Of a stretch of 64,000 nucleotides of DNA, positions 7,511 to 59,223 are shown piece after piece. The translations under genes and the position numbers were made by a program. Source of the stretch: a phage. A model generated the notes under the pieces. The model was not told the DNA's origin, did not search any database, and was given only the letters and a program-made list of their open reading frames with translations. The DNA is taken from assembly GCA_014816185.1 (NCBI GenBank), contig GCA_014816185.1_4095.1. One strand, given 5' to 3'. Numbering within the stretch: position 1 is the stretch's first letter; the number at the start of each line of letters is the position of its first letter.

Positions 7511-8095
7511 ATGAATGTTATTGATAATAGATTAGTACTGAAAAATGGAAAAATGACTGTTAAGTTATATAAAGATGAAGCTGATTCTTTTATGGCAAAA
7601 GCGATTGAAAAATCAGAACGATATAAACTTTTGGCTCCAGCAAGTAAATCGCCATATGGTTTTAATCATGCACATAGTCATTTTGTTGGTATGGTGTGTG
7701 AGCACGCATCTTTAGTACTTTTTAATGAAATTGAAAACAATACTGGTATTAAACTTAATATCGATCCAGCATTCCAAAATGAAGCACGTGACGGTGAATG
7801 TGATATTAAGGTAAACAACCTTCGTATTGAAGTAAAAGGTATCAAGTATAAATCATGGACTGACTTTGGACCATGTGTTAGTACTCGACAGTTAAAAAAT
7901 ATCCAGAAAAAAGCTGACGTAATACTATGGGTATTGTATAATGAGAAAAAACAAGAGTTCACGTTTGAGGGATTCAACTATGTAAAAGATATTAGTTCTA
8001 TCCCAGTTGTCCTCACTGGTGTACCAGGGCGACCAATGATTGAAAATCACCCAGTACTCGGTATTATGAAACCACTACAGGAGTTACCATTGTGA
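7511..8095 (+). CDS. hypothetical protein; weak D...ExK nuclease-like motif
   Basis: SD GAGGTG; RDGECD ... RIEVKG resembles a PD-(D/E)xK core, unverified. Confidence 0.5.
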   Translation: MNVIDNRLVLKNGKMTVKLYKDEADSFMAKAIEKSERYKLLAPASKSPYGFNHAHSHFVGMVCEHASLVLFNEIENNTGIKLNIDPAFQNEARDGECDIKVNNLRIEVKGIKYKSWTDFGPCVSTRQLKNIQKKADVILWVLYNEKKQEFTFEGFNYVKDISSIPVVLTGVPGRPMIENHPVLGIMKPLQELPL

Positions 8096-8319
8096 TTACT
8101 GCAACTGTATATCAAGATATCAATGAAGAATTTCATTCTAAAATTGCGTTCTTATCATTTCCTGTACTCCCAGTAGTTGGGTCAACGTTGAATCTTACCA
8201 TTTGTGGGTTTGAGAAATATTATAAAGTTCTAGATATTGAGTACTGTGCTGATGTGTATTCATGTAATAGTGAAATTGCAATTCCAGTATCAATCGATAT
8301 TATTGTAAAAGAGGTTTGA
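8092..8319 (+). CDS. hypothetical small protein
   Basis: GTG start overlapping upstream stop (GTGA), AGGAG SD. Confidence 0.45.
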   Translation: MITATVYQDINEEFHSKIAFLSFPVLPVVGSTLNLTICGFEKYYKVLDIEYCADVYSCNSEIAIPVSIDIIVKEV

Positions 8320-8777
8320 TTATGTTTAAGAATTTTATGGTTATCGTAGCAGTACTGTTTGGTACATCATGTTTTATTTCCCCAGTACACGCAGAAGAAC
8401 AACGTCAAACTATTAAAACTATTGGGACTGGTAAAACTCCCCCTAAACGTACTGCTGACGAATACATGCCTGAAATGCGTGAACGTTATCGTCAGACATA
8501 CAGGGAAAAACATGCTAATGATAAACCCATCAAGAAGCATAAATGGGAAGTTGTTAAATCTCCTTCATTTTGTGCTGGATATGCTAAAGTAAAGATTGAG
8601 CAGCACAAAAACCAGTACTATAAAGATATGTATTCCTTCTATGACTCCAGAATTTCTGACACAGATATGATGGCAGGGAAGGTTGATAAAGAAGAATTTC
8701 TACAAGGCTATGATATGATGGACGATGACAAAATCATGGAATGCGTTGAAGTGTATGAAAAATACAGAGGCTTCTGA
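8316..8777 (+). CDS. secreted protein (signal peptide)
   Basis: N-terminus MIMFKNFMVIVAVLFGTSCFISPVHA then charged mature region. Confidence 0.6.
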   Translation: MIMFKNFMVIVAVLFGTSCFISPVHAEEQRQTIKTIGTGKTPPKRTADEYMPEMRERYRQTYREKHANDKPIKKHKWEVVKSPSFCAGYAKVKIEQHKNQYYKDMYSFYDSRISDTDMMAGKVDKEEFLQGYDMMDDDKIMECVEVYEKYRGF

Positions 8778-9253
8778 TGTTAACAATAGTGTTGTTGGTA
8801 AGTCCATTTGTGTATTTTGTGCTGTATAATATTTTTAGTAATGCTAATCATTTTAAATATGCACAAACAATTGCAAAACATGAAGGATTTTGGAATTTTT
8901 TCCCAGCGTTACTATGCTCATATCTATACCATGAACGCTATTTCATTTTTCCTGAATATAAAAATTATGGTTATGATTCTAAAGTAAATGGTATAATTGA
9001 GTACTGTATAAGAAATTTTCTTAATAATAATGATAACGTCCAAGTAAGAATAGGAAATGGTAATATATCAAGAATAGTTTTCATACCTGATATACAAGAT
9101 CCAATATACTTATATCCATATGATTATAGTATTAGTGTAGGTTGTTCGATACATGGTAGTAAATCTATGTACGATTACTTTATCTTACCACCAACACAAA
9201 TTAGATTAATAGAAAAATATTTGAGGGAAAAGTTTGACAACAAAGATTCTTAG
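8777..9253 (+). CDS. hypothetical protein with N-terminal TM
   Basis: TGATG overlap; hydrophobic N-terminus. Confidence 0.5.
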   Translation: MLTIVLLVSPFVYFVLYNIFSNANHFKYAQTIAKHEGFWNFFPALLCSYLYHERYFIFPEYKNYGYDSKVNGIIEYCIRNFLNNNDNVQVRIGNGNISRIVFIPDIQDPIYLYPYDYSISVGCSIHGSKSMYDYFILPPTQIRLIEKYLREKFDNKDS

Positions 9254-9294
9254 TATTATAATTAACACACCAAGTAACCCAAGGGGGATGGAAA

Positions 9295-9753
9295 ATGGAT
9301 GTATTAGCTACAAATTTCAAACGTAATGTTGAAGAGCGTGAAGGTTATTTTAGTATTAGTGAAGTTGTCGATGACAATTTTAAACAATACATTTTTAATA
9401 GTGCAATTAAATTAAAATGCACAAAAGATTCACCTGATCGTAGCTTTACTAAATGGATTGCGTATTGGGAAGATTCACCAGTTGCAATTGAAATGACTGT
9501 GATTACAACAGTACTTGAAACTGGTTACATCAAAGCCATTATAGTTGATAAGAAAGTCCGTACTCTTGATGAAATTAATCCATATCCAGCCCGAAATTCT
9601 AAAGTTTTTGGTGTGTTGGTTGATGGTAAATTTATGATAGAAAAAGATGCAAAGGAATATGTAATTAATAAACTTCAAACTACATCAGAAAAAAAGGAAG
9701 TAGTGGACCAAAACTCTGTTGATGCAATCAAAAAAGCATGGGGGCTAAAGTAA
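9295..9753 (+). CDS. hypothetical protein
   Basis: SD AGGGGGA. Confidence 0.6.
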   Translation: MDVLATNFKRNVEEREGYFSISEVVDDNFKQYIFNSAIKLKCTKDSPDRSFTKWIAYWEDSPVAIEMTVITTVLETGYIKAIIVDKKVRTLDEINPYPARNSKVFGVLVDGKFMIEKDAKEYVINKLQTTSEKKEVVDQNSVDAIKKAWGLK

Positions 9754-9754
9754 T

Positions 9755-10177
9755 ATGTTCACACTAAGTAATGCAAAATATCTTTTTCTTATTAGTATTA
9801 TTGGTTGGGTTATGGCTCCAGTGCTAAATGCACTGGGGTTTTCCGATGAACATAAACTTTTAAATGTTTCAGGTTTAATTCAGGGTATTTCATGGTATAC
9901 ATTAATTACATTTTCAGTGTGCATCAATACATTTGCCCGTGATTATCGACGTTTGTTATATCTGAAAGTATTTGGAACTACACGATATAGTTTTGTTTAC
10001 ACTTTCATTTTAGTACCGTGTATGTTATATGCATTTGTATTTGATTACTATACATATCTATGGGTATGTGGAACTATGTTTGTTATGTTGGAATACATCA
10101 GAACTGTTCAAAACTCATATGCTGATGAGTTTCATGATCTAGAAGTTAAACGAAAATTAACGGAGCTAAACAAATGA
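9755..10177 (+). CDS. integral membrane protein
   Basis: Multiple hydrophobic segments. Confidence 0.55.
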   Translation: MFTLSNAKYLFLISIIGWVMAPVLNALGFSDEHKLLNVSGLIQGISWYTLITFSVCINTFARDYRRLLYLKVFGTTRYSFVYTFILVPCMLYAFVFDYYTYLWVCGTMFVMLEYIRTVQNSYADEFHDLEVKRKLTELNK

Positions 10178-10599
10178 GAGGCTATAATAAGATTTGTATT
10201 TTTGTATTTTTAGTTTGTGCATTCAATTCGTTTGGTTACTACTGTACAGAAAATAATATTTCATATGGTTTAAATCCTTTGTGGTTTACAATTTCCAATG
10301 TAGCACAAATTGGTATTGCTCTTATGTCTGCACTTATGTTCTGTCCAATTGTCACTATGGATACTGATCATGAAAGGCTTGGATTTCTCCGTGATACTGG
10401 AGACGAACCTTACAGTAGATTGATTGTGTTGTATCCATTTATTGTTATTTTAGGTACTAACATCCAACTTGGGTCATTATCTAATAGTGTTACATCAGCA
10501 GCTATTGCTATATTTGCATTCACATTTTTTATGGTACACAAATCAGTACTTAATTGGTATATCACAAAAATGGCAGAAGAAGGTACTAAAAATACTTGA
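10174..10599 (+). CDS. integral membrane protein
   Basis: ATGA overlap; multiple hydrophobic segments. Confidence 0.55.
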   Translation: MRGYNKICIFVFLVCAFNSFGYYCTENNISYGLNPLWFTISNVAQIGIALMSALMFCPIVTMDTDHERLGFLRDTGDEPYSRLIVLYPFIVILGTNIQLGSLSNSVTSAAIAIFAFTFFMVHKSVLNWYITKMAEEGTKNT

Positions 10600-10624
10600 C
10601 ATAATTTAGTATGTTATATATAAT
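10596..10624 (+). promoter_or_regulatory. sigma70-like promoter
   Basis: TTGACA - 17 nt - TATAAT upstream of the 10659 gene. Confidence 0.5.
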
Positions 10625-10658
10625 TATTTTGTTAAAAACAAATTAGAGTAAGGAACTT

Positions 10659-10910
10659 ATGAACATCGATAAGGTCAAAGAACTTAGTGCTGCACTAATT
10701 AAGAATGAAGAAGTTTGTGAAGAACTTCGCAGTACTATCAAAGTTGAGTACGCACGACTCCAAGGTATGCTTCAAGAATCAGAATGGGTAGTAACTAAAT
10801 CTATCGAAGCAATCTATAAGGATATCGAATCCCTTTTCAACAAGAAAAGTAAGATTGAATCTGATTCATATAACAAACGTAAAGAGTTATCTACTGCACT
10901 TGGTATCTAA
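10659..10910 (+). CDS. hypothetical protein
   Basis: AAGGAA SD; downstream of consensus promoter. Confidence 0.6.
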   Translation: MNIDKVKELSAALIKNEEVCEELRSTIKVEYARLQGMLQESEWVVTKSIEAIYKDIESLFNKKSKIESDSYNKRKELSTALGI

Positions 10911-10984
10911 AAGTATTTGAGATAACAAATAATATGGAGTACAATGTGCTCCTAATTTAATTATCAGCTAAAAAGGAAAACATT

Positions 10985-11245
10985 ATGAAATCTATTCTCG
11001 TTGCAGTTAACCTGGTTGCTTACCCATCTTTCAACTTCAAACAAGTTGTTGCTGATAATCTGAAGAAGATCTGTCCAAACGCTGAATTAACTTTCTGTGT
11101 GTTTGATTCAGAAAAAGTAACTAAAGTTGATCTAAACTATCTTTTGAACGAAGTAAAAAGCGTTTCTGGTGAAAGTAACTTAAAAGTTCTTCATGATATT
11201 GCAGAAGATTATGATGACACTCTAGTAATTTCGGAGAAATTCTAA
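10985..11245 (+). CDS. hypothetical protein
   Basis: AAGGAAA SD. Confidence 0.6.
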   Translation: MKSILVAVNLVAYPSFNFKQVVADNLKKICPNAELTFCVFDSEKVTKVDLNYLLNEVKSVSGESNLKVLHDIAEDYDDTLVISEKF

Positions 11246-11250
11246 ATCAA

Positions 11251-11670
11251 ATGATTACATTCATTCAGTACTTAATCATTAAATTTTTTGGCTATCATAC
11301 GATTGAAGGCAAAGCTACACTCGCACATAAAATCTTTGTAGCATTATGTACGGGTGATTATGACGTATTGAATAAGTACTGTAAATCTAAAGCATGTATT
11401 GATATAATGGCACTTCGTATCTATGAGTGCCGTTCCAATAGATACAATTTTTACCAATACAGATTTGATGAAAAAGAATTTGATAGCATCAAAATGCTAA
11501 AGAATTTATGTAACAATAAAAAGAATATGCATATATCAGAATTTGTTGCTTTGTATTTTTATTTAAAAAGTTCATTGTATATGAACACAATGCAAAGATT
11601 CGATACTAGAATTAATGTATTCACCGATAAAGAATTTTATATATACGATAAATTCTTAGATAAGGTTTAA
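11251..11670 (+). CDS. hypothetical protein
   Basis: ORF in operon context. Confidence 0.5.
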   Translation: MITFIQYLIIKFFGYHTIEGKATLAHKIFVALCTGDYDVLNKYCKSKACIDIMALRIYECRSNRYNFYQYRFDEKEFDSIKMLKNLCNNKKNMHISEFVALYFYLKSSLYMNTMQRFDTRINVFTDKEFYIYDKFLDKV

Positions 11671-11671
11671 T

Positions 11672-12169
11672 ATGACAACTGTTTATATTGATAAACGATT
11701 AAATTTATTGATTACCGATTCTAGAGTTACGTCAACTATACCACGAAACTTATTTGGTTTTTTCCCACTAAGACCAAAATATCAATATGGAGTTGTTAAT
11801 CAAAAAACTTTATATGTACATGACCGTTTATTCAGTGCTAGTGGGGTAGTAAGTGAAATTGATAAAGTACTGGATTGGTTAATTAATAAAGTACCAGTTA
11901 TACCTGACAGAAAGTTAAGTTGCCATTGTGTGCTTCTTTCTAAAGATTATGTTATTCATATGATTTTAACTAAAGGAAAGTTTATTAAAAAACTTGAATA
12001 TCTACATGAAGACTACACTTTCTTTATGGGAAGTGGTGGAGAATACATGCTAGATGCTGCTATTCATGAAGAACATACAACTTTATATGATAAAGTGTTT
12101 AGTACTTTCATGGATGTGCACAACCATGATTGTTTCACAGATGATAATATTAATGTATATCGATTTTGA
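11672..12169 (+). CDS. hypothetical protein
   Basis: SD AAGG. Confidence 0.55.
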   Translation: MTTVYIDKRLNLLITDSRVTSTIPRNLFGFFPLRPKYQYGVVNQKTLYVHDRLFSASGVVSEIDKVLDWLINKVPVIPDRKLSCHCVLLSKDYVIHMILTKGKFIKKLEYLHEDYTFFMGSGGEYMLDAAIHEEHTTLYDKVFSTFMDVHNHDCFTDDNINVYRF

Positions 12170-12190
12170 TTTCGTCATTAGGAGATGTAA

Positions 12191-13156
12191 GTGAAAAAGC
12201 TTGATTTAAATACAATTGCCGAAGAAGTTCTGGATGAATGTTTTGCTAATGAAGAAGTCAACACACTAGAAGCCTTAGATTTCGTTGAAGATAAAGATGA
12301 AAATGAAGGTAAAGTACAAAGCAGTTTCAAATATAATATTACACTTAAGCGACCACCAAATGTTTCCAATGAAGATCTAATTCGTGATATTCAAGCTGGT
12401 ATCAATGTAAAGAAAAACACTGAACTGTTAGTTCGTTACAATTATGGACTGATTATTGATGTAGCAAGTAAATGTACTTGTTATATCCCATTTGAAGATA
12501 AGATTTCATATGGTGTTGAGGGGTTCATGAGAGCACTAAAAACCTTTGATCTTAATAAGAATGTTAAGTTCATTACCTATGCTTCTTCTAGTATTTACAT
12601 GACAGTCTATAACGAAAGTTCTGACGCTAACTATATGGTACACTTCCCACGTTATATGAGTGTTCATAAGATCAAAGTAAAAAGATTCTGTCAGGAATAT
12701 ATGCGTAAACATGGTGTTCGCCCAACTCCTGAAATAATCTCAGAGGGTACTGGGATTGAGATTCAGCATGTTAATAATTGTTTGTTATTTCAAAGCGAAT
12801 ACACTTCGCTGGATGCACCATTAGACGGTGTTACAGATGGTACATTAGGTGACATTATTCATTCACCTGCTTCTGATTTTAACCTCAATGTTGATAGTAT
12901 CCGTGCACCTTTGCGTTATGCTATCAATGAACTGACCAACGAATTGAGTACTAAAGAACGTGAGATTATCCAGCGTGTTCATGGTCTAGGTGAATATGAA
13001 CCTGAAACGCTTCGTGAGATTACTGATAATGGTTTTGTTGATGATAATGGAAAATATGTTAAATCCCGTTCATCAATACACCGAAAGTACAGTGAAGCTA
13101 TGCAAAAGCTTAAGAAGTTAGTACTTGCAAAAGGGTACGAATACGAAGATTTCTAA
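12191..13156 (+). CDS. putative sigma70-family sigma factor
   Basis: GTG start with AGGAG SD; region-2-like segment LVRYNYGLIIDVASKC...GVEGFMRALKTFDLNKNVKFITYASSSI and region-4-like C-terminus; recognised by eye only. Confidence 0.5.
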   Translation: MKKLDLNTIAEEVLDECFANEEVNTLEALDFVEDKDENEGKVQSSFKYNITLKRPPNVSNEDLIRDIQAGINVKKNTELLVRYNYGLIIDVASKCTCYIPFEDKISYGVEGFMRALKTFDLNKNVKFITYASSSIYMTVYNESSDANYMVHFPRYMSVHKIKVKRFCQEYMRKHGVRPTPEIISEGTGIEIQHVNNCLLFQSEYTSLDAPLDGVTDGTLGDIIHSPASDFNLNVDSIRAPLRYAINELTNELSTKEREIIQRVHGLGEYEPETLREITDNGFVDDNGKYVKSRSSIHRKYSEAMQKLKKLVLAKGYEYEDF

Positions 13157-13164
13157 AGAACAAG

Positions 13165-13189
13165 GGTTGGCTTATGCCAACCTTTTTTT
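13165..13189 (+). terminator. rho-independent terminator
   Basis: GGTTGGC-TTAT-GCCAACC followed by TTTTTTT. Confidence 0.6.
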
Positions 13190-13714
13190 ATGGGATGAAG
13201 TAAAAGTTTGTGATATAATTATCTTGTACAATTCTGTTGGCATGATATTCATGTACCTGATCCACTCGAAAACGTAGAGGGCAGTTGAGCAGTCCGACAG
13301 TGCGAACAGCAAAAGAAACCCGTTAGATGTGGGCATAGTTTGAACCCCTCACGGCAATGCGGCTGTATAAAGAACCACGTTAGGATAGCTGGTGGTTCCT
13401 TGATAGACATATAAGGATAACACCTTACGAATTATCTAAGGGAGAGTTATCGAATTTTGTACAGGAAAGTTGCGTCCAAAATTTGAGTACTCACATTAAG
13501 TATTTGATTGCATAGATACTTAATGAAGATACACTATGTTTAAAAGTGTAGACCGTCATATGAAACTGAAGTAGAGAGAAACAGGATGACCCGCTTTCGC
13601 ACTCGTTATGAGTAATCTTCAATGCAATAGCTCTGATACCATCAGCGTCAAATTTCCCTCCTTGTGGGGGGGAAGAAAAATCCCTTCCTCAAATCCCGTC
13701 AATATTAAAAGTCC

Positions 13715-13743
13715 TTGACAGTTATTAATCATTCGCGTAGAAT
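13715..13743 (+). promoter_or_regulatory. sigma70-like promoter
   Basis: TTGACA - 17 nt - TAGAAT upstream of the 13808 gene. Confidence 0.5.
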
Positions 13744-13807
13744 ACGTAGTATTAGAAGCGAACAGACATCTCGAAGAGATGGATGATTAACCATTAAGGA
13801 ATATCCA

Positions 13808-14017
13808 ATGAATTCAGTAATCTTTTTAGTAATAGCTTTTTCTGTTAATTCCGGTGTACAAATAACCCCAATGAATTCCATGAATCAATGCATTGCATTA
13901 CGTGATAGTACATACGAACAAGTAAACAAAGATATTTGGATTACAGTTAGTAAAGAACAAATGTGGTGTTACAATAGTAATACTAAAGAGAAACTTATTG
14001 TGGGTCAAACTAAATGA
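13808..14017 (+). CDS. small protein with hydrophobic N-terminus
   Basis: AAGGAA SD. Confidence 0.55.
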   Translation: MNSVIFLVIAFSVNSGVQITPMNSMNQCIALRDSTYEQVNKDIWITVSKEQMWCYNSNTKEKLIVGQTK

Positions 14018-14244
14018 GTTATGGTGTTCGTTTTGAGATTCGTGCTATTGTTATCAATGACGAGAAACAAGCATCATTAGATGGTGATATACGAGAATTA
14101 TATCTATCATGTATCCGTGCAAAATCTGAAGCCGATGCATTAGCACAAATGTATGGTTTTAACTTTTTTCACGGATACCATTTGGTACGAGTTATCGAAG
14201 TTACAAAAATAATTATAGGTTGTAACAAAGAAGGAATAATATAA
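14014..14244 (+). CDS. hypothetical protein
   Basis: ATGA overlap. Confidence 0.55.
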   Translation: MSYGVRFEIRAIVINDEKQASLDGDIRELYLSCIRAKSEADALAQMYGFNFFHGYHLVRVIEVTKIIIGCNKEGII

Positions 14245-14245
14245 A

Positions 14246-15034
14246 ATGAGCACTATAGATGAATTGATTCGCCGGAATTCAAAATACTACAAACCATCAG
14301 AAATTGTAGGTAACATTACCAAATCAGAGTTTGGTCCAAATACTCGAAAACTCATTCATGTAATGTCACGTGATGGCTTTAAATGTGATTGTTGTGGTGA
14401 ATCCAATGTGGTATTCACTTTACATAAGCACAGTACTAAAGAACGTTATAAATTCAGACCTTATGTACTTAAAGGGAAACGCCTTGTACGCATGACGTTA
14501 GACCATAATGTACTTGACTGTCTTCAGGGCGGTAATGATAAAGAGAACATGACTGCACTGTGTGAAGATTGTAACGCATTACGCCAGCATAAGTTTGCTG
14601 AATACAGTGAGTTTAAACACTGGTATCATAACGCGGATCGTTCAATCGAGCCTGACGTTAACTACTGCTTCATTGAGTACATTAAGAATGCCAAAGATAC
14701 ATACATTCTTAAATCAATGTCACCTATTACCGTGTTTCCTGAGAACCTATTCACTACATTAAAGAATAGTTTTATTGTAGGTGATATTGATGCATTCAAG
14801 TATTTTGACAAAGGTGCAAAACATTTTGAAATTCAATGTCTTAGTACTGCACTATGTGAACTCATTAAAATTTACATAAAAGAGTATTTGGGTATTGACA
14901 ATGTACGTATACCAGAGTATACTTTTTCTATTGAATTCGATTGTGAATCAATCAAAGAGTTTGGAATTCTTTTCAATAAACAAATAGAACTTGCAATTCA
15001 AAACGAAATCAAGTACTATACTACTAACATTTAA
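14246..15034 (+). CDS. HNH endonuclease
   Basis: Cys-rich N-terminus (CDCCGE) and HNH-like motif LDHNVLDCLQGGNDKENMTALCEDCNALRQHK. Confidence 0.6.
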   Translation: MSTIDELIRRNSKYYKPSEIVGNITKSEFGPNTRKLIHVMSRDGFKCDCCGESNVVFTLHKHSTKERYKFRPYVLKGKRLVRMTLDHNVLDCLQGGNDKENMTALCEDCNALRQHKFAEYSEFKHWYHNADRSIEPDVNYCFIEYIKNAKDTYILKSMSPITVFPENLFTTLKNSFIVGDIDAFKYFDKGAKHFEIQCLSTALCELIKIYIKEYLGIDNVRIPEYTFSIEFDCESIKEFGILFNKQIELAIQNEIKYYTTNI

Positions 15035-15049
15035 TCAGAGGAAATTATC

Positions 15050-15232
15050 ATGCAAATTATCATTCTTATCGTTGGCATCATGCTGGGTGTTTACGGTCAC
15101 TCCTGGATGAACGAGAAGTTTCCTAATACGCGTCCTGAGTATTGCAGTTCTGATGTATTCCAGAATGGTGAGAAACCAAAGGAAAGCATTGGTAAAAAGC
15201 TGGATAAAGTACTTGATGTGATCAATGAATAA
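15050..15232 (+). CDS. small membrane protein
   Basis: SD GAGGAA; hydrophobic N-terminus. Confidence 0.5.
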   Translation: MQIIILIVGIMLGVYGHSWMNEKFPNTRPEYCSSDVFQNGEKPKESIGKKLDKVLDVINE

Positions 15233-15242
15233 GGGCCATAAA

Positions 15243-15443
15243 ATGTTTAAACCGAATTCCAATGTTGGTAAGAAAGTTCAATTACTTGAAGATGTATCCA
15301 CCATGAGTGGAATTTTCCCAAGAGGTCACATCATGACTATTATTGCCGAAACATCCCGTGGGTGGGATTTGGAAGATGCTGATGGTAATCGCATCCTTGA
15401 GGCTGGATTCTATGGTCATCGTGAATATAAAATCGTTGATTAA
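15243..15443 (+). CDS. hypothetical protein
   Basis: Start moved to internal ATG (MFKPNS). Confidence 0.5.
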   Translation: MFKPNSNVGKKVQLLEDVSTMSGIFPRGHIMTIIAETSRGWDLEDADGNRILEAGFYGHREYKIVD

Positions 15444-15452
15444 GGATACAAC

Positions 15453-15536
15453 ATGACTTTAGAGATTGTCTTTGGTATTGTTAGCTTAGTCGTCTGTGTG
15501 GGTTGGTTTGGGTATCTGATGATTTTTAGTGATTAA
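15453..15536 (+). CDS. 27-aa hydrophobic micro-protein
   Basis: AAGGA SD 7 nt upstream; MTLEIVFGIVSLVVCVGWFGYLMIFSD; below the ORF-track cutoff. Confidence 0.3.
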   Translation: MTLEIVFGIVSLVVCVGWFGYLMIFSD

Positions 15537-15539
15537 TAC

Positions 15540-15567
15540 TTGACATAAGATATCAGTACTGTATAAT
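15540..15567 (+). promoter_or_regulatory. sigma70-like promoter with CAGTACTG abutting -10
   Basis: TTGACA - 16 nt ending in CAGTACTG - TATAAT. Confidence 0.5.
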
Positions 15568-15612
15568 GTTTATATCAAACGAAATCCACTTTAACAAATG
15601 ATAGGAAATATT

Positions 15613-15891
15613 ATGTCTTTTTCTAAAGAAGAACGTGACCTTATTAAAAAAGCAATTTGGTTTTATGCTAATGAAGGGAAGTGCGATGAAGAAAAAGCAC
15701 GTGAACTGTGTAATATCCTTGAGAAGAAACAAGAACTGAAAGTGTATCGTATCCGTGATTTGGATGAAGGGGATCGTATTGTCCTAGCTGAAACAAAAGA
15801 AGAAGCAGAACAAATCTTCACTGATAAAAACGAAAATCCACATTGGATGGAAGAAGTCTGTGATGTTAAAAAAGGTACTTATATCGATTGA
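15613..15891 (+). CDS. hypothetical protein
   Basis: Start moved to ATG with AGGAAA SD. Confidence 0.55.
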   Translation: MSFSKEERDLIKKAIWFYANEGKCDEEKARELCNILEKKQELKVYRIRDLDEGDRIVLAETKEEAEQIFTDKNENPHWMEEVCDVKKGTYID

Positions 15892-16010
15892 CAGTACTGA
15901 ATAATAGCAGTATTATGTTTTATATAAAAGGGAATGCAGTGAAAGGAAAGACAGCATAATCGTACTCGTCACTGCGTTCCCGCCCTTTTAAATTAAATGA
16001 GGAATTAACT

Positions 16011-16319
16011 ATGTTTCAAACTAACACTCAAGGTTTTGTAATCATCGATTTGAATCAAAACAGCGGTCATTGGATGAAACCTACTGACGCATGTATGCAG
16101 TTTGATTTCTTAGGTTACAAAATTAGTGTAAGTACTGGTGCTTCTGTACTGAGAGGTGGTTGTATCGTTGAACATCTGGTAACTGATCCAGAAGGTCGTG
16201 AGTATGAAATCGCAGGTTCAGTACAAGATGCCATTATGTTTGTATGTCAGCGTGAAATGAATGGTTCGAATTCAAATGCACTGACTCATGCTCTTTCTCA
16301 AGAAGTGGAGGTTCGTTAA
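16011..16319 (+). CDS. hypothetical protein
   Basis: SD GAGGAA. Confidence 0.6.
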   Translation: MFQTNTQGFVIIDLNQNSGHWMKPTDACMQFDFLGYKISVSTGASVLRGGCIVEHLVTDPEGREYEIAGSVQDAIMFVCQREMNGSNSNALTHALSQEVEVR

Positions 16320-16564
16320 TGAAATACATTTTAGCAGTACTCGTCGCATTTCTACTCACTGCATGTGATGCTTCTACCAAAGAACGTACAAGTGATTTTG
16401 TTCTACCTGCTGAATTAAAAGAAGCAGGGTGTAAGATTTATCGTATGCAACAAGATGGTGCTGGTGCGACTTTATACACTGTGTACTGTCCTAATGCAAA
16501 TACAAGTACTGGATACACTAGCGGTAAAACACGAATCAACACTTCCGTAATTCATGGAGAATAA
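16319..16564 (+). CDS. putative lipoprotein
   Basis: Signal peptide with lipobox LTAC (MKYILAVLVAFLLTAC). Confidence 0.6.
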   Translation: MKYILAVLVAFLLTACDASTKERTSDFVLPAELKEAGCKIYRMQQDGAGATLYTVYCPNANTSTGYTSGKTRINTSVIHGE

Positions 16565-16566
16565 CA

Positions 16567-16935
16567 ATGAGCCTTGATACAACACGTGCAGCAGATTTAT
16601 TAACTCGTCTGAATGATGAAGAATATCTTGCTGAGATAAAGTACAAGCTTGACAAACTTGTTCGAAGTGCTGAAGTAATTGAAGTTGAAGGTCACTTACC
16701 GATGGATCAATACCATAGGTTCAAGGAAGATATGGTTTATTATCCTAATGAAATTTGGATTGAGTGGCAACATTGGACTAACAAAACTCTTCGCATTGAA
16801 GGGTATTGTGTGAAGTATGAAAGTTCACCTGGTGATGTTACAAAAACTCTATCAATTTGGTGTACAAAAACAAATGAACTCGTTGAGGTGAATTTGAATT
16901 ATATGAATGGATTCCGTTGGGGTGATGTTAAATGA
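16567..16935 (+). CDS. hypothetical protein
   Basis: SD GGAGA. Confidence 0.6.
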   Translation: MSLDTTRAADLLTRLNDEEYLAEIKYKLDKLVRSAEVIEVEGHLPMDQYHRFKEDMVYYPNEIWIEWQHWTNKTLRIEGYCVKYESSPGDVTKTLSIWCTKTNELVEVNLNYMNGFRWGDVK

Positions 16936-17207
16936 TTAAAAAACTCTTGACTGGAATCATTGTGTGCAGTACAATGTTTCTTACAGCATGTAATGATGAC
17001 GGCAGGTTTAGTGCAAAAGACTTAGTTCGTCAGGATTGTACATTCACAGGTAAGTCTTTTATTAACGAGTATGAAATATGTACACAATCAGGTCGTATCT
17101 GTGGTGGTTGGGAAAAACGTCAGGAGCGATTGTATGTATATGAATGCCCTGGACATCACAACAAAGTACTAAGCACACACAAACTTGTTTATGATAAGGT
17201 TGAATAA
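16932..17207 (+). CDS. putative lipoprotein
   Basis: ATGA overlap; signal peptide with lipobox LTAC. Confidence 0.6.
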   Translation: MIKKLLTGIIVCSTMFLTACNDDGRFSAKDLVRQDCTFTGKSFINEYEICTQSGRICGGWEKRQERLYVYECPGHHNKVLSTHKLVYDKVE

Positions 17208-17422
17208 TGACTACCAATGAAATGATGCAGGTTATTTGGGATAAAGGTTGTGATATTAAAATCACTAGTACTGATGTTCGTGTATTCAAAACTGAATATA
17301 TGGAGTACTTGGATCTTGATACTTATAATAATATTGTATCAATCGAACACAAAGGTGCAGTACTGGAAACGATTGATGTAGTACTCAAGAAAGCTACCGA
17401 CCTATTAGGAGTGGCAGTGTGA
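17207..17422 (+). CDS. hypothetical protein
   Basis: TAATG overlap. Confidence 0.55.
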   Translation: MTTNEMMQVIWDKGCDIKITSTDVRVFKTEYMEYLDLDTYNNIVSIEHKGAVLETIDVVLKKATDLLGVAV

Positions 17423-17565
17423 ATAACAAAGAGTGGGAAGATTACCGCAAGAAGTGCCGAGAGTTTGATAAAGAACTCACAGGTGCAGTGAACGGGGTAA
17501 TGTGGGTATCTGCAATTATTGCAGTACTTGGTTTGGGTGCTATTATTATTAATAAATTATTGTAA
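17419..17565 (+). CDS. 48-aa protein with C-terminal TM segment
   Basis: GTG start overlapping upstream stop, AGGAG SD; below ORF-track cutoff. Confidence 0.35.
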   Translation: MNNKEWEDYRKKCREFDKELTGAVNGVMWVSAIIAVLGLGAIIINKLL

Positions 17566-17573
17566 GGACTAAT

Positions 17574-17774
17574 ATGTTTACTTTATATCTTGCAGTAGTA
17601 CTAACTAATGGTGAAATCACTCGCACCGTTGGTGAAGGTGTATATAAAACACCTGATCAGTGTTACTCTGCAACTCATTGGCCTCGTGATGCTGGTGATG
17701 AATCTCGCACTGAATACAAATGTATGAAGGTTAAAGGTGACTTTGTAAATCTAAAGGTTATTGAGACTAAGTAA
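17574..17774 (+). CDS. hypothetical protein
   Basis: SD AAGGA. Confidence 0.55.
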   Translation: MFTLYLAVVLTNGEITRTVGEGVYKTPDQCYSATHWPRDAGDESRTEYKCMKVKGDFVNLKVIETK

Positions 17775-18292
17775 TGGATATTAATGAGTTGTTGAAATTA
17801 GTGTTTAATCGTGAACGCCGCGATACAAGACCAATTGAATATCAAGATGTGATATGCATTGAAACTGATTTCTGTTATGGTAAAACAACTCATGACCTTT
17901 TGAATCTCTCTGGAAAACGCTATGCTGATGTTTGTTTTTCAGAGAGAAGTGATGGTTCAGAAATAACGAGTACTGATATTGTTTGTTACGCACGCAGTGC
18001 TGATAAATCTTATGAAATAGAACTTATATATTCCCCTAGTTCTAAAACAAATCATCACCGCCATATTTTATATGATGTTTACACACCACCTGGTATTGCT
18101 GAATATTTTGTTATTGATTATAGTACTGAAGAAAATGTGTTTCAACAAAGTTTGATTCATAACTTTGAGGTTAATGATCCATTAGTGCCAAAGTTATTCA
18201 AACTACTTGACACCATCGATGTTGATTTTGAATTTGTTATGTGTATTAGAACTTCTTTATTCAATGAATTCATGGAACTTTTTAATATATGA
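17774..18292 (+). CDS. hypothetical protein
   Basis: TAATG overlap. Confidence 0.6.
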   Translation: MDINELLKLVFNRERRDTRPIEYQDVICIETDFCYGKTTHDLLNLSGKRYADVCFSERSDGSEITSTDIVCYARSADKSYEIELIYSPSSKTNHHRHILYDVYTPPGIAEYFVIDYSTEENVFQQSLIHNFEVNDPLVPKLFKLLDTIDVDFEFVMCIRTSLFNEFMELFNI

Positions 18293-18510
18293 ATAGATAC
18301 TATGTTGTGTATGAACACGTCTCTGAATTTAATAACATACGAGGTTATTCCAGAGTTGTCACAAAGATGGATGTATTCATTCGTGCTCTTAGTGAAGTGG
18401 ATGCACTGTTTAAATTGTTTGATGAAATTACAAAGTATAACACACCCAAAACACACCGCTATGTGGAAACTGTACATAGCATTATGCTAACTGAAAGTGA
18501 TGAGGAATGA
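18289..18510 (+). CDS. hypothetical protein
   Basis: ATGA overlap. Confidence 0.55.
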   Translation: MNRYYVVYEHVSEFNNIRGYSRVVTKMDVFIRALSEVDALFKLFDEITKYNTPKTHRYVETVHSIMLTESDEE

Positions 18511-57382: not shown

Positions 57383-57504
57383 TTCAACATATAGACAGGG
57401 GAAGCTCCGCAGGGAAAGCATTGGACAGGCTTTAACATATGTTATATATGTTAAAATTCAGCCTGGACAAATGCGATCACTAGGATTCTCCCCAGGCTAA
57501 ACCC

Positions 57505-57785
57505 CGTAATCATATGTAGTCATAAGTAATCATATATAAACATTTAAGTAATCATTTATAATCACAGTAGTGATCAGTATTGAGTACTAGAGTGTAATAG
57601 AGTACAGGAATGTGCACGTTTAATCAAGAACGTAGCAGTACTGCCCCAAAAGTATTCAGTACTGAAGGTGGCGATATCCCACTAAGTAGGCAGAGGAAGT
57701 CTGCCGTACTTTGTAGTTTCCAAGCTCCTTTTCCATTTTGCAAATTACATCAAATGTAATCAAAAGTAATCACGCAATGATTAGT
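57505..57785. repeat. cluster of GTAATCA short repeats with inverted copy
   Basis: GTAATCA recurs at least five times (about 57506, 57526, 57548, 57756, 57766) plus inverted repeat TAATCACGCAATGATTA. Confidence 0.5.
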
Positions 57786-58048
57786 ACTGAATTATTACTT
57801 TCACCTTAATTTCAATTACCCTTTTACCCTTCGGGGTAAAATTCAATTACCCCTTGAGGCTCCAGCAAAAAGTTGGTTAGTACTCCATCCTAAATCTCGA
57901 TCCTAAAAATTTTGGAGTACCTATGAAATAAAAGTTGGATCTTCGAAAGTTGAAATTTACGTTGGGACGTTTATGATTTGTGGGATATAATGATGTTTGT
58001 AGTCGGGTAGTTCTCAAGAATATCAGTACTGAAAGATGAAAGAAAGTT

Positions 58049-58077
58049 ATTGACTTTATGATTCAGTACTGTATAAT
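58049..58077 (+). promoter_or_regulatory. orphan sigma70-like promoter
   Basis: TTGACT - 17 nt ending in CAGTACTG - TATAAT with no ORF of 60 aa or more downstream. Confidence 0.45.
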
Positions 58078-58473
58078 GTTCTACATAGCTTCAAGGGGTG
58101 ATGAGTTGCTGCGAACAATTCATTTACTCTACCTCCTGTCGTGAGACAGTACAGAAAAGATAGTTCCTCCTGTGGTGGTACATCTTTTTGAACCTCATAT
58201 GAAAATCGTAATAACAGTACTGATATTAACAGAATGGTATCAGTACTGATTTTAATCTAAAGCATTATGCCACCAGCTTGTGCTGGTGGATTCCCTCTAA
58301 CAGTATTCAGTACTACATGATAGTCTTCATCCTCCTAGGGTAACATAGTGAGGGCTATGATGGCAGTACTGAATACTCCCTTTCAAAAGATAGATCTATG
58401 GTATAGTACTGACGGATTTTGGGTGTAGTTACCCTGGATGGATTTTGGACGTAGATATGTCTAGCCCTCCAGA

Positions 58474-58600
58474 AGTCTGGAAGTAAAGATGGCTATCCAT
58501 CTAGACGGCTAAACGGCTAGATTTCTGGATGGCTGGATGGCTAGACGTTTGGACGGCTAAACGTCTAGATGGTTACACGTCTGGAAGTATAGACGGCTAA
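58474..58600. repeat. dense array of CTAGACG / GGCTAAACG short direct and inverted repeats
   Basis: GTCTGGAAGTA flanks both ends; internal CTAGACGTTT-N7-AAACGTCTAG inverted repeat; GGATGGCT and GGACGGCTAAACG units. Confidence 0.5.
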
Positions 58601-58779
58601 ATCAAAATTTTATTTTGTTTTTTCCAATAGTTCCCCTACCGCGTGGGGATAGTTTCCCCGCAGTATCTGGAGTTAGATTTTTCTGAATCTGGAATCATTA
58701 TCTTATAAACTGGGGGCAATGTCAACGGCCTGGACGGATATTTTTAAAAATTTTTTCAGTACTGAATTTTGGGCGTAAC

Positions 58780-58840
58780 TATGCACCCGGTGGGCTTGAG
58801 TCTTTCTCGACTTGATGGAACTATTATACAGTACTGGAAA
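58780..58840. repeat. intergenic repeat TGCACCCGGTGGG...CAGTACTGG, copy 1
   Basis: Shares TGCACCCGGTGGG(C/T)TTAG ... TTGATG ... ATTAT.CAGTACTGG with copies near 60928 and 63348. Confidence 0.5.
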
Positions 58841-59223
58841 AATAAAGCAATACCCTGGATGAAAAAAGTTTTAATTAATTTGCTTGCTATCCTGGGCCGG
58901 ACTATGGTACTATATTTCAGTACTGAGAAAGTGCGTTAACCTGCTAGGGTGCGGGAGTGTATCCTTTTTAAATTTTATGAATTTTGGACGGATCTTCCCA
59001 CCCCCTGGGGTATCCGCTTTCTCGCGTCTATGTAGTAATTATACGCTTTTTTAGTACTGAGTCAATAGCTAAAAACAAAATAATTGAAAATAATTTAACG
59101 CGTTTAAACGGCCTGTAACGCCCTGGATTGTTGGGAGTGGTGCAAATGTATAGCTTAGGTGTATTAATGCGTTAGAATGCGATTGAGGCCGTTTTACGGG
59201 GTGTAGTAGTGATTTGGTTGATT

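Follow-up and report, generated by a model that had tools for sequence, protein, structure and literature searches.

The stretch of DNA analysed here, referred to as the window, is 64 kb long, and open reading frames (ORFs) of at least 60 aa cover 89% of it. The initial annotation had described positions 13190–13714 as free of such ORFs, and we found none overlapping them; the longest ORFs there encode 54 and 53 aa, both on the − strand. The whole region without ORFs of at least 60 aa spans 651 bp (13157–13807) and ranks second in size among the gaps of the window. It follows a sigma-factor gene (12191–13156, + strand), whose intrinsic terminator lies on the same strand at 13162–13185 and consists of a 10-bp stem with five G-C pairs, a 4-nt loop and a T-run. 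A terminator after the sigma-factor gene is also annotated in phages G17 and UE-S1, and in the window it marks the 5′ boundary of an RNA transcription unit. On the other side is a sigma-70-type promoter, TTGACA-N17-TAGAAT (13715–13743, + strand), with 11 of 12 matches to the consensus. This promoter serves the small genes that begin downstream on the same strand, from 13808 onwards, and is the 3′ boundary of the unit, outside the core of the RNA family. The position of the segment between these two signals is thus as first described. The same holds for its base composition: the GC content of 13190–13714 is 0.402, compared with 0.375 and 0.324 for the 525-bp flanks and 0.347 for the whole window, which places it at the 94th percentile of 525-bp windows. 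The conserved RNA core (13256–13704) has a GC content of 0.421.

Two further features were seen downstream of the RNA. A second small conserved element, found 3′ of the RNA in many copies, occupies 13744–13800 and has a hairpin with a GCGAAC / CGUAG-like loop or stem; in the window it reads ACGTAGTATTAGAAGCGAAC, followed by the CATCTCGAAGAGATG hairpin. It is common to the phage copies (CBB, GAP32, BF and XbC2; L013–L017) and to copies in bacterial chromosomal islands (L078–L094), and in several phages a TTGACT promoter then follows. Two genes 3′ of the RNA there is an ORF of 262 aa (14246–15034), the counterpart of which in phage 121Q, gp170, is annotated as an HNH endonuclease. This is a free-standing homing-endonuclease-like gene and is not linked with other copies of the RNA.

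We consider it very probable that the segment holds a gene for a structured RNA of ~477 nt (∼13226–13702, + strand), based on conservation, on nhmmer and covariance-model hits, and on covariation. The gene has a promoter of its own, a feature missed by the initial annotation: an extended −10 element, TG-a-TATAAT, at 13211–13219 (+ strand) without a good −35 element. All copies have TATAAT upstream, and it is invariant in an alignment of nine sequences; TnTGnTATAAT is found upstream of nearly all of 42 phage copies, and TGTCCTATACT is found at the promoter position in island copies. The start of the RNA at ∼13226–13228 is predicted from this promoter, that is, inferred and not measured. The conserved region spans the promoter to the tail CAAAUCCCGUCAA (13690–13702), and the consensus end of the family is CAAAUCyCGUCAr. 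The RNA is ∼480 nt long in the window copy and 440–620 nt across the family.

The 3′ end is less clear. In 33 of 65 copies an intrinsic terminator lies between a hairpin that we call P15 and the C-run/G-run hairpin P14. The window copy lacks an intrinsic terminator, which leaves its 3′ end undefined, and a longer transcript that has this RNA as its 5′ part is conceivable. Where the terminator is present, it is upstream of the still conserved P14 hairpin and tail, and this conservation is not explained by a simple model in which the RNA ends at the terminator. No transcriptome of any phage carrying the family was found in the literature searched, and transcription as well as its start and end points are inferred.

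The region shows no sign of coding for protein. Across family members the median longest ORF is 56 aa and codon periodicity is absent. The possibility that UAAGGGAG is a Shine–Dalgarno-like sequence ahead of a small ORF was rejected because neither a start codon nor a frame after it is conserved. The annotations of 121Q, G17, CBB and BF leave the RNA region empty. Several other GenBank records, among them SHEFM2K, BAU.Micro_ELP-22, E9.1, JP4 and SD-15_S21, have 3–5 "hypothetical proteins" over the homologues of 13250–13710. These ORF calls over the RNA gene are almost certainly spurious, and the annotation can be corrected accordingly.

The window belongs to an Asteriusvirus jumbo phage. Its identity over the query is 100% with Escherichia phage SHEFM2K and ∼99% with 121Q and PBECO4. 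In a blastn search of 50,697 phage records the segment matched only Rak2-like jumbo phages with genomes of 310–386 kb, which infect Escherichia, Salmonella, Erwinia, Yersinia, Serratia, Pectobacterium, Cronobacter, Xanthomonas and Klebsiella. The RNA family was found in 62–71 jumbo-phage records, and every Rak2-like jumbo phage checked has 3–5 matching places in its genome. The core of ∼450 nt is ∼70% identical between genera, and the flanks cannot be aligned. The set grew to 133 hits and 65 non-redundant full-length copies when IMG/VR, metagenomes and GTDB genomes were scanned for motifs and the finds were confirmed by an nhmmer profile. Plasmids gave no match to the family.

Phage 121Q has four copies, at 90.3, 192.8, 247.5 and 326.6 kb. 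Each of them occupies a gap in the annotation and is on the + strand; the fourth is flanked by genes on the opposite strand. No second copy was found within the 64-kb window by blastn, nhmmer or the covariance model, and the other paralogues lie outside it. The genes next to the RNA differ from paralogue to paralogue. Paralogues within one genome are 61–74% identical and cluster as orthologous groups, each with one copy from many genera; one such group contains BF, XbC2, GAP32, CBB and five uncultivated genomes. Because these groups span genera, the duplications must be older than the genera, with each copy kept ever since.

Copies of the RNA are also found outside phage genomes. Full-length copies (265–304 bits) were identified in Serratia fonticola (a complete chromosome), Serratia sp. 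2723, Enterobacter chinensis, Silvania hatchlandensis, Enterobacteriaceae RIT714, Buttiauxella and other MAGs, and, among 5,426 complete E. coli genomes, in two. These copies reside in integrative islands of Enterobacterales chromosomes, with a single copy per island. The order is an integrase, the RNA on the same strand, and then, convergently, a CI-like S24 repressor. Some of the integrases are of the tyrosine type (398–432 aa), the others large serine recombinases (558–703 aa). Farther along the islands there are an HTH protein, unknown proteins, an LprI-like protein and a small resolvase. Analysis of the island genes with Pfam, PHROGs and PADLOC showed that only the integrase and the repressor are constant.

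One of the E. coli islands, in strain LR-29-1 (L152; NZ_AP027515.1, 3467142–3491515), is ∼10 kb long (7959–18303 of the locus) and lies between ffs (SRP RNA) and ybaA. It contains an integrase disrupted by IS3, the unannotated RNA (∼12000–12460 of the locus), and DUF4326, DUF488 and dual-OB genes. The DUF488 and dual-OB genes match the PADLOC candidate defence system PDC-M45.

A tblastn search with all island ORFs against 121Q and the window found no protein common to the islands and 121Q; the only matches were spurious ORFs inside the RNA and one unrelated DUF4326 match. The RNA gene is thus the only thing common to the phage and the small islands. One paralogue from a Xanthomonas jumbo phage is 77% identical to the copy in an Enterobacter island, which indicates that exchange between phages and islands has been recent relative to the age of the family.

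The initial annotation had also noted several stem-forming stretches, and these are real. The folding energy of the single sequence is unremarkable (z = −1.69 for the + strand and −1.33 for the − strand) and hence uninformative, so the case for a structure rests on the comparison of homologues, which had been proposed as a check. RNAalifold analysis of 42 copies predicted 64 pairs, 39 of which show compensatory double changes. Using an alignment of 65 non-redundant (<97% identity) full-length copies (A4), we derived 16 helices from covariation, with 78 pairs including the two pseudoknots PK1 and PK2. Standard pairs are found in 95.7% of 4,936 cells, compared with 38–45% when the 3′ partners are slid by 1–3 columns, and in 60 of the 78 pairs both partners have changed. 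The covariation score reaches 0.566, compared with 0.07–0.10 for the slid control and 0.19 for the shuffled control, and none of 500 shuffles reached it. The shuffle control ignores the relatedness of the sequences, whereas the slid control keeps it and gives the same answer. G-U outnumbers A-C by 374 to 47 cells, from which we conclude that the + strand is the folded strand; the promoter is on the same strand. Sequence comparison thus supports a predicted fold with at least 16 helices and three pseudoknots that is under selection at the RNA level.

The 5′ domain (13262–13427, this and all following features on the + strand) contains the helices P1 (13265–67/13277–79), P2 (13289–91/13301–03), P3 (13306–10/13362–66), P4 (13320–23/13351–54), P5 (13331–33/13345–47), P6 (13372–78/13392–98) and P7 (13412–15/13424–27). 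P2, P3 and P4 are 99.6–100% paired in the 65 sequences, with compensatory changes. Mutual-information analysis revealed two more contacts. One is a long-range contact between AUG (13357–59) and CAU (13408–10), with a column pair (280–344) that is GC in 51 and AU in 14 sequences. The other is the third pseudoknot, PK3, in which the loop of P6 (13383–13387) pairs with 5 nt just 5′ of UAAGGGAG (13433–13437). Its column pair 307–389 is UA in 28, GC in 26 and AU in 5 sequences. Since MAFFT misaligns the loops, PK3 was tested without an alignment: the duplex mean with a sequence's own loop was 4.35 compared with 3.39 with the loops of other sequences, a difference reached in none of 2000 permutations. 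The single-stranded UAAGGGAG (13437–13444) is itself invariant, with AAGGGA the same in all 65 sequences. It is followed by P8 (13444–46/13490–92; helix 8), which is 98.9% paired with all three pairs compensatory. P8 (13444–13492) encloses a recurrent module, UUUUGUACA..AAAGUUGCGUCCAAAAUUUG, which in other members is found either here or inside P13.

The 3′ core (13494–13628, helices 9–15) is the best conserved part of the RNA, while the 5′ leader and the internal module are variable. A covariance model of the 3′ core (R1) scores the window copy at 114.7 bits. The loop of the P9 hairpin (13494–13525) pairs with a downstream strand to form PK1 (13507–12 × 13623–28), which is 99.5% paired with compensatory changes at all six pairs, for example UA in 33 and CG in 32 sequences. 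P10 (13530–50) follows, and then PK2, which lies within the loop of P12 (13555–59 × 13586–90) and is 100% paired with three compensatory pairs. The remaining helices of the core are P11 (13567–71/13617–21), P12 (13574–78/13594–98) and P13 (13601–03/13611–13). PK1 could be either intra- or intermolecular. Its sequences differ among the paralogues of one genome, which fits either neutral compensated drift or a need to avoid cross-pairing.

Downstream of the core, the P15 hairpin CUGAU-ACC-AUCAG (13633–13645) ends in the first of two similar 3′ motifs, ..AUCAGCGUCAA, and is followed by the conserved C-run/G-run hairpin P14 (∼13654–13675). Helix 16 of this P14/P15 segment is 97.8% paired, with only C-G/U-G changes. 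The two motifs have the consensus AUCAnCGUCAr and AUCyCGUCAr. Invariant unpaired segments include UAAGGGAG, GAUAGACAUAU and GAAACnG...ACCCGCUU. Three further candidate interactions did not hold. A helix between 5′ GAUGAG and 3′ CUCGUC is unsupported, since the G[A/U]UGAG and C[U/C]CGUC variants are uncompensated. A symmetric kissing loop, which would be a palindromic signature of an RNA-only homo-oligomeric assembly (nanocage), at the conserved UGUACA (at the GUAC position) was rejected because AUAC and UUAC variants break the palindrome. Complementarity of CUCGUCAG to CUGACGAG of 16S rRNA was dropped, as it is a chance-level 8-mer and the GUCAA variants do not fit.

Judged by Rfam 15 and the searchable literature, the RNA belongs to no known family. 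A scan of the whole window with the 4227 Rfam 15 models at gathering threshold, including those for ROOL, GOLLD, OLE, group I and II introns, RNase P, tmRNA, 6S and riboswitches, gave only a tRNA-Thr at 837–909. Searching 13100–13850 at E-values up to 10 gave only chance-level hits (at most 20 bits), mostly on the upstream terminator, and seven divergent family members searched at E-values up to 1 had no hit inside the RNA. An Rfam scan had been proposed at the outset; its negative outcome shows only that the RNA is not a member of the curated families. ARAGORN likewise found tRNA-Thr alone in the window and no tmRNA. This tRNA-Thr(UGU) (837–910) is the last of a phage tRNA cluster that sits at 72–78 kb in 121Q. 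Since ARAGORN reported nothing at the locus, a tmRNA or tRNA-like RNA was rejected. A group I intron was rejected as well, because the RNA is intergenic, has its own promoter, has unrelated flanks between copies and gives no RF00028 hit. Searches of the literature (jumbo-phage genome papers for CBB, UE-S1 and others, papers on ROOL and GOLLD, and structured-RNA surveys) found the family undescribed, although an anonymous entry among 10,006 viral structured-RNA candidates (PMC10690425) cannot be excluded. Within these limits it is an undescribed family of large pseudoknotted RNAs that falls within the known kind of ornate phage RNAs.

The closest comparisons are with ROOL and GOLLD. ROOL is an RNA of several hundred nt that is encoded by phages or prophages, defined by covariation, has multiple pseudoknots and no partner, and is of unknown function (10.1101/2024.12.08.627333). 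The RNA in the window shares these features: it is several hundred nt long, phage-borne, multi-pseudoknotted, without a protein partner and defined by covariation. There is no match in sequence or structure, however, and the family is found in jumbo phages of Enterobacterales, whereas ROOL is found in Firmicutes or rumen phages. The family also differs from ROOL in having 3–5 diverged paralogues per genome that are not beside tRNA islands. Like GOLLD, it is a large phage or prophage RNA of unknown function with one conserved and one variable part. Unlike GOLLD it is ∼480 nt rather than >800 nt long, has no embedded or adjacent tRNA, has its own extended −10 promoter and is multicopy, and there is no covariance-model match. 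Of the features typical of ROOL and GOLLD, a length above 400 nt with a covariation-supported structure including pseudoknots is present, as is a phage or prophage-like location without a constant protein partner. Adjacency to tRNA islands is not: the only tRNA in the window is 12 kb upstream, and none of the copies in 121Q (90, 193, 247 and 327 kb) neighbours the tRNA cluster at 72–78 kb.

Long non-coding RNAs are known from a relative of the phages studied here. PA5oct, a Pseudomonas jumbo phage related to the Rak2 clade, has four ORF-free RNAs of 236–619 nt (ncRNA001–004) that were verified by RNA-seq, and two of its long RNAs make up 2–5% of the phage reads; their function is unknown (PMC7318152). 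The Rak2-related phages therefore do make abundant long ncRNAs. Homology to the PA5oct RNAs was rejected, since nhmmer with --max gave no hit and the R1 model with filters off gave at best 9.4 bits (E = 0.18). The PA5oct loci compared (L076, 14452–14902; L077, 617–1235) are unrelated in sequence and in core structure. PA5oct ncRNA004 has a C-run/G-run hairpin followed by a tail of ∼25 nt, a superficial likeness to the 3′ end of the RNA in the window.

The initial annotation had offered a choice between a structured non-coding RNA and a regulatory region. The covariation among homologues supports the former. A cis-regulatory role is not favoured, because the genes beside the RNA, and the direction in which they run, change among paralogues and island copies whereas the RNA itself is kept. 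What is observed is a gene-like unit with its conservation, fold, strand, copy number and distribution, and we consider it rather probable, though by no means settled, that this unit is an independent RNA gene transcribed by the host whose folded product acts in trans. Host RNA polymerase would transcribe the RNA from the extended −10 promoter; as this promoter would need no phage factor, synthesis of the RNA would begin as soon as infection does. The transcript is predicted to fold compactly, into 16 or more helices and three pseudoknots, with unpaired segments that are invariant. The folded RNA itself would be the product and act in trans, like ROOL and GOLLD. Its target would most likely be some part of the translation, RNA-decay or defence machinery that Enterobacterales cells have in common, which it would bind or mimic, or else the RNA would form an RNA-only assembly, since no partner protein travels along with it and it is present equally in lytic jumbo phages and in small islands. 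The trans action and the nature of the target are inferences, and the host-directed reading rests on absence of evidence, namely the lack of a partner gene and of a constant neighbour.

We can also imagine a more far-reaching version, which we regard as possible and no more than tentative. Here the RNA would represent a new class of ornate RNA, either a ribozyme or an RNA-only quaternary assembly in which PK1 is intermolecular, with 4–5 paralogues that differ in their PK1 loops and target a core host machine. The islands that carry the RNA, one of them with the candidate defence genes PDC-M45, would then exploit or counterfeit the RNA of the phage, either as satellites or as defence elements.

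Another possibility is that each copy is an origin of replication, with the RNA forming a persistent RNA-DNA hybrid near its 3′ end that is processed by RNase H into the primer of the leading strand. On islands, a copy would let the island be replicated by, or compete with, the replisome of the jumbo phage. ColE1 RNA II is ∼500 nt long and has its own promoter, features that the RNA in the window resembles. In anatomy, though in nothing more, the family is comparable to ColE1 RNA II and the transcripts of the T4 R-loop origins oriF–oriG in being a structured transcript of ∼500 nt with its own promoter and a G-rich/C-rich 3′ element, here an invariant G-run/C-run element, and in belonging to a phage that encodes RNase H and has several copies along its genome. 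The 4–5 copies are spaced 55–110 kb around genomes of 350 kb in one orientation, and 121Q encodes a UvsW-like helicase and T4-like replisome genes besides RNase H. Such an origin would also fit the conserved sequence beyond the internal terminator, as well as an RNA gene that is the sole item common to phage and small islands. Yet priming is not known to need three pseudoknots and invariant unpaired nucleotides along all 480 nt, and the tertiary structure is far more conserved than priming requires. There is neither an AT-rich unwinding element nor iterons beside the 3′ end, and, unlike for ColE1 RNA II, there is no antisense regulator and no mapped origin. The T4 origin transcripts are not known to be conserved structured RNAs. 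A role as origin primer is therefore unlikely in our judgement.

The size, the density of pseudoknots and the strictly invariant unpaired nucleotides are typical of large ribozymes, and a catalytic core could process the RNA itself or act on other RNA, with the motifs AUCAnCGUCAr and AUCyCGUCAr as substrate or processing sites for the same active site. The two motifs do vary together (UGUCAG for both in L039, CGACAA for both in L084), but these parallel changes are few and one of them (C to U) is also neutral for the local helices. There is no likeness to any Rfam ribozyme family, and flanking exons or repeated cleavage products cannot be inferred from sequence, which leaves catalysis as quite an unlikely explanation. 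A cis-acting leader for the genes from 13808 onwards, for example a processive antitermination or attenuation element, could be suspected from the lack of a terminator in the window copy, which is upstream of genes on the same strand, and from the possibly regulated terminator hairpin that many copies hold. We find this very unlikely, as the downstream genes have a separate near-consensus promoter, situated 3′ of the RNA, they differ for every paralogue, and the genes faced by the fourth copy in 121Q and by every island copy are on the opposite strand; known leaders are also far smaller than 480 nt with three pseudoknots. That the segment is instead a DNA-level element, such as a repeated recombination or packaging site, or the remnants of small genes is hardly tenable. 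It is repeated in the genome, and ORFs have been called over it in some records. However, compensatory pairing on one strand (374 G-U versus 47 A-C) is not expected for a DNA site or a protein, the ORFs are short, unconserved and without codon periodicity, and nothing is annotated here in the careful records (121Q, G17, CBB, BF).

RNAs that are large, elaborately folded and without a known function are rare. The well-known examples are OLE, GOLLD, ROOL and raiA, each of which opened new RNA biochemistry. The present family is unusual for its kind in being multicopy and anciently paralogous, in its strictly invariant single-stranded motifs, and in being common to lytic jumbo phages and integrative islands. 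These three traits suggest a strongly selected function at the interface between phage and host or between phage and island. The phages that carry it can be cultured and are held in collections (121Q, PBECO4, G17, phAPEC6 and SHEFM2K), with hosts that include E. coli, so that genetics, RNA-seq and cryo-EM are immediately feasible.

Two other parts of the window contain non-coding features. The largest gap without ORFs is found at 57383–59068 (1686 bp) and contains 16/24-nt tandem repeats at 58487–58582 with the unit AGATGGCTAAACGTCT. Short pieces of this gap match other jumbo phages, at the ends of their records or in annotated direct terminal repeats, and T5-like Vibrio phages, at their genome ends. 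The gap is probably a genome-terminus or terminal-repeat boundary region. Repeated motifs of 12–18 nt are found amid very small genes at 60400–61900 (for example at 60474–60485, 61033–61061 and 61835–61863), a region that also includes an ORF-free gap of 426 bp (60790–61215). They resemble promoter or intergenic elements reiterated within an array of early genes.
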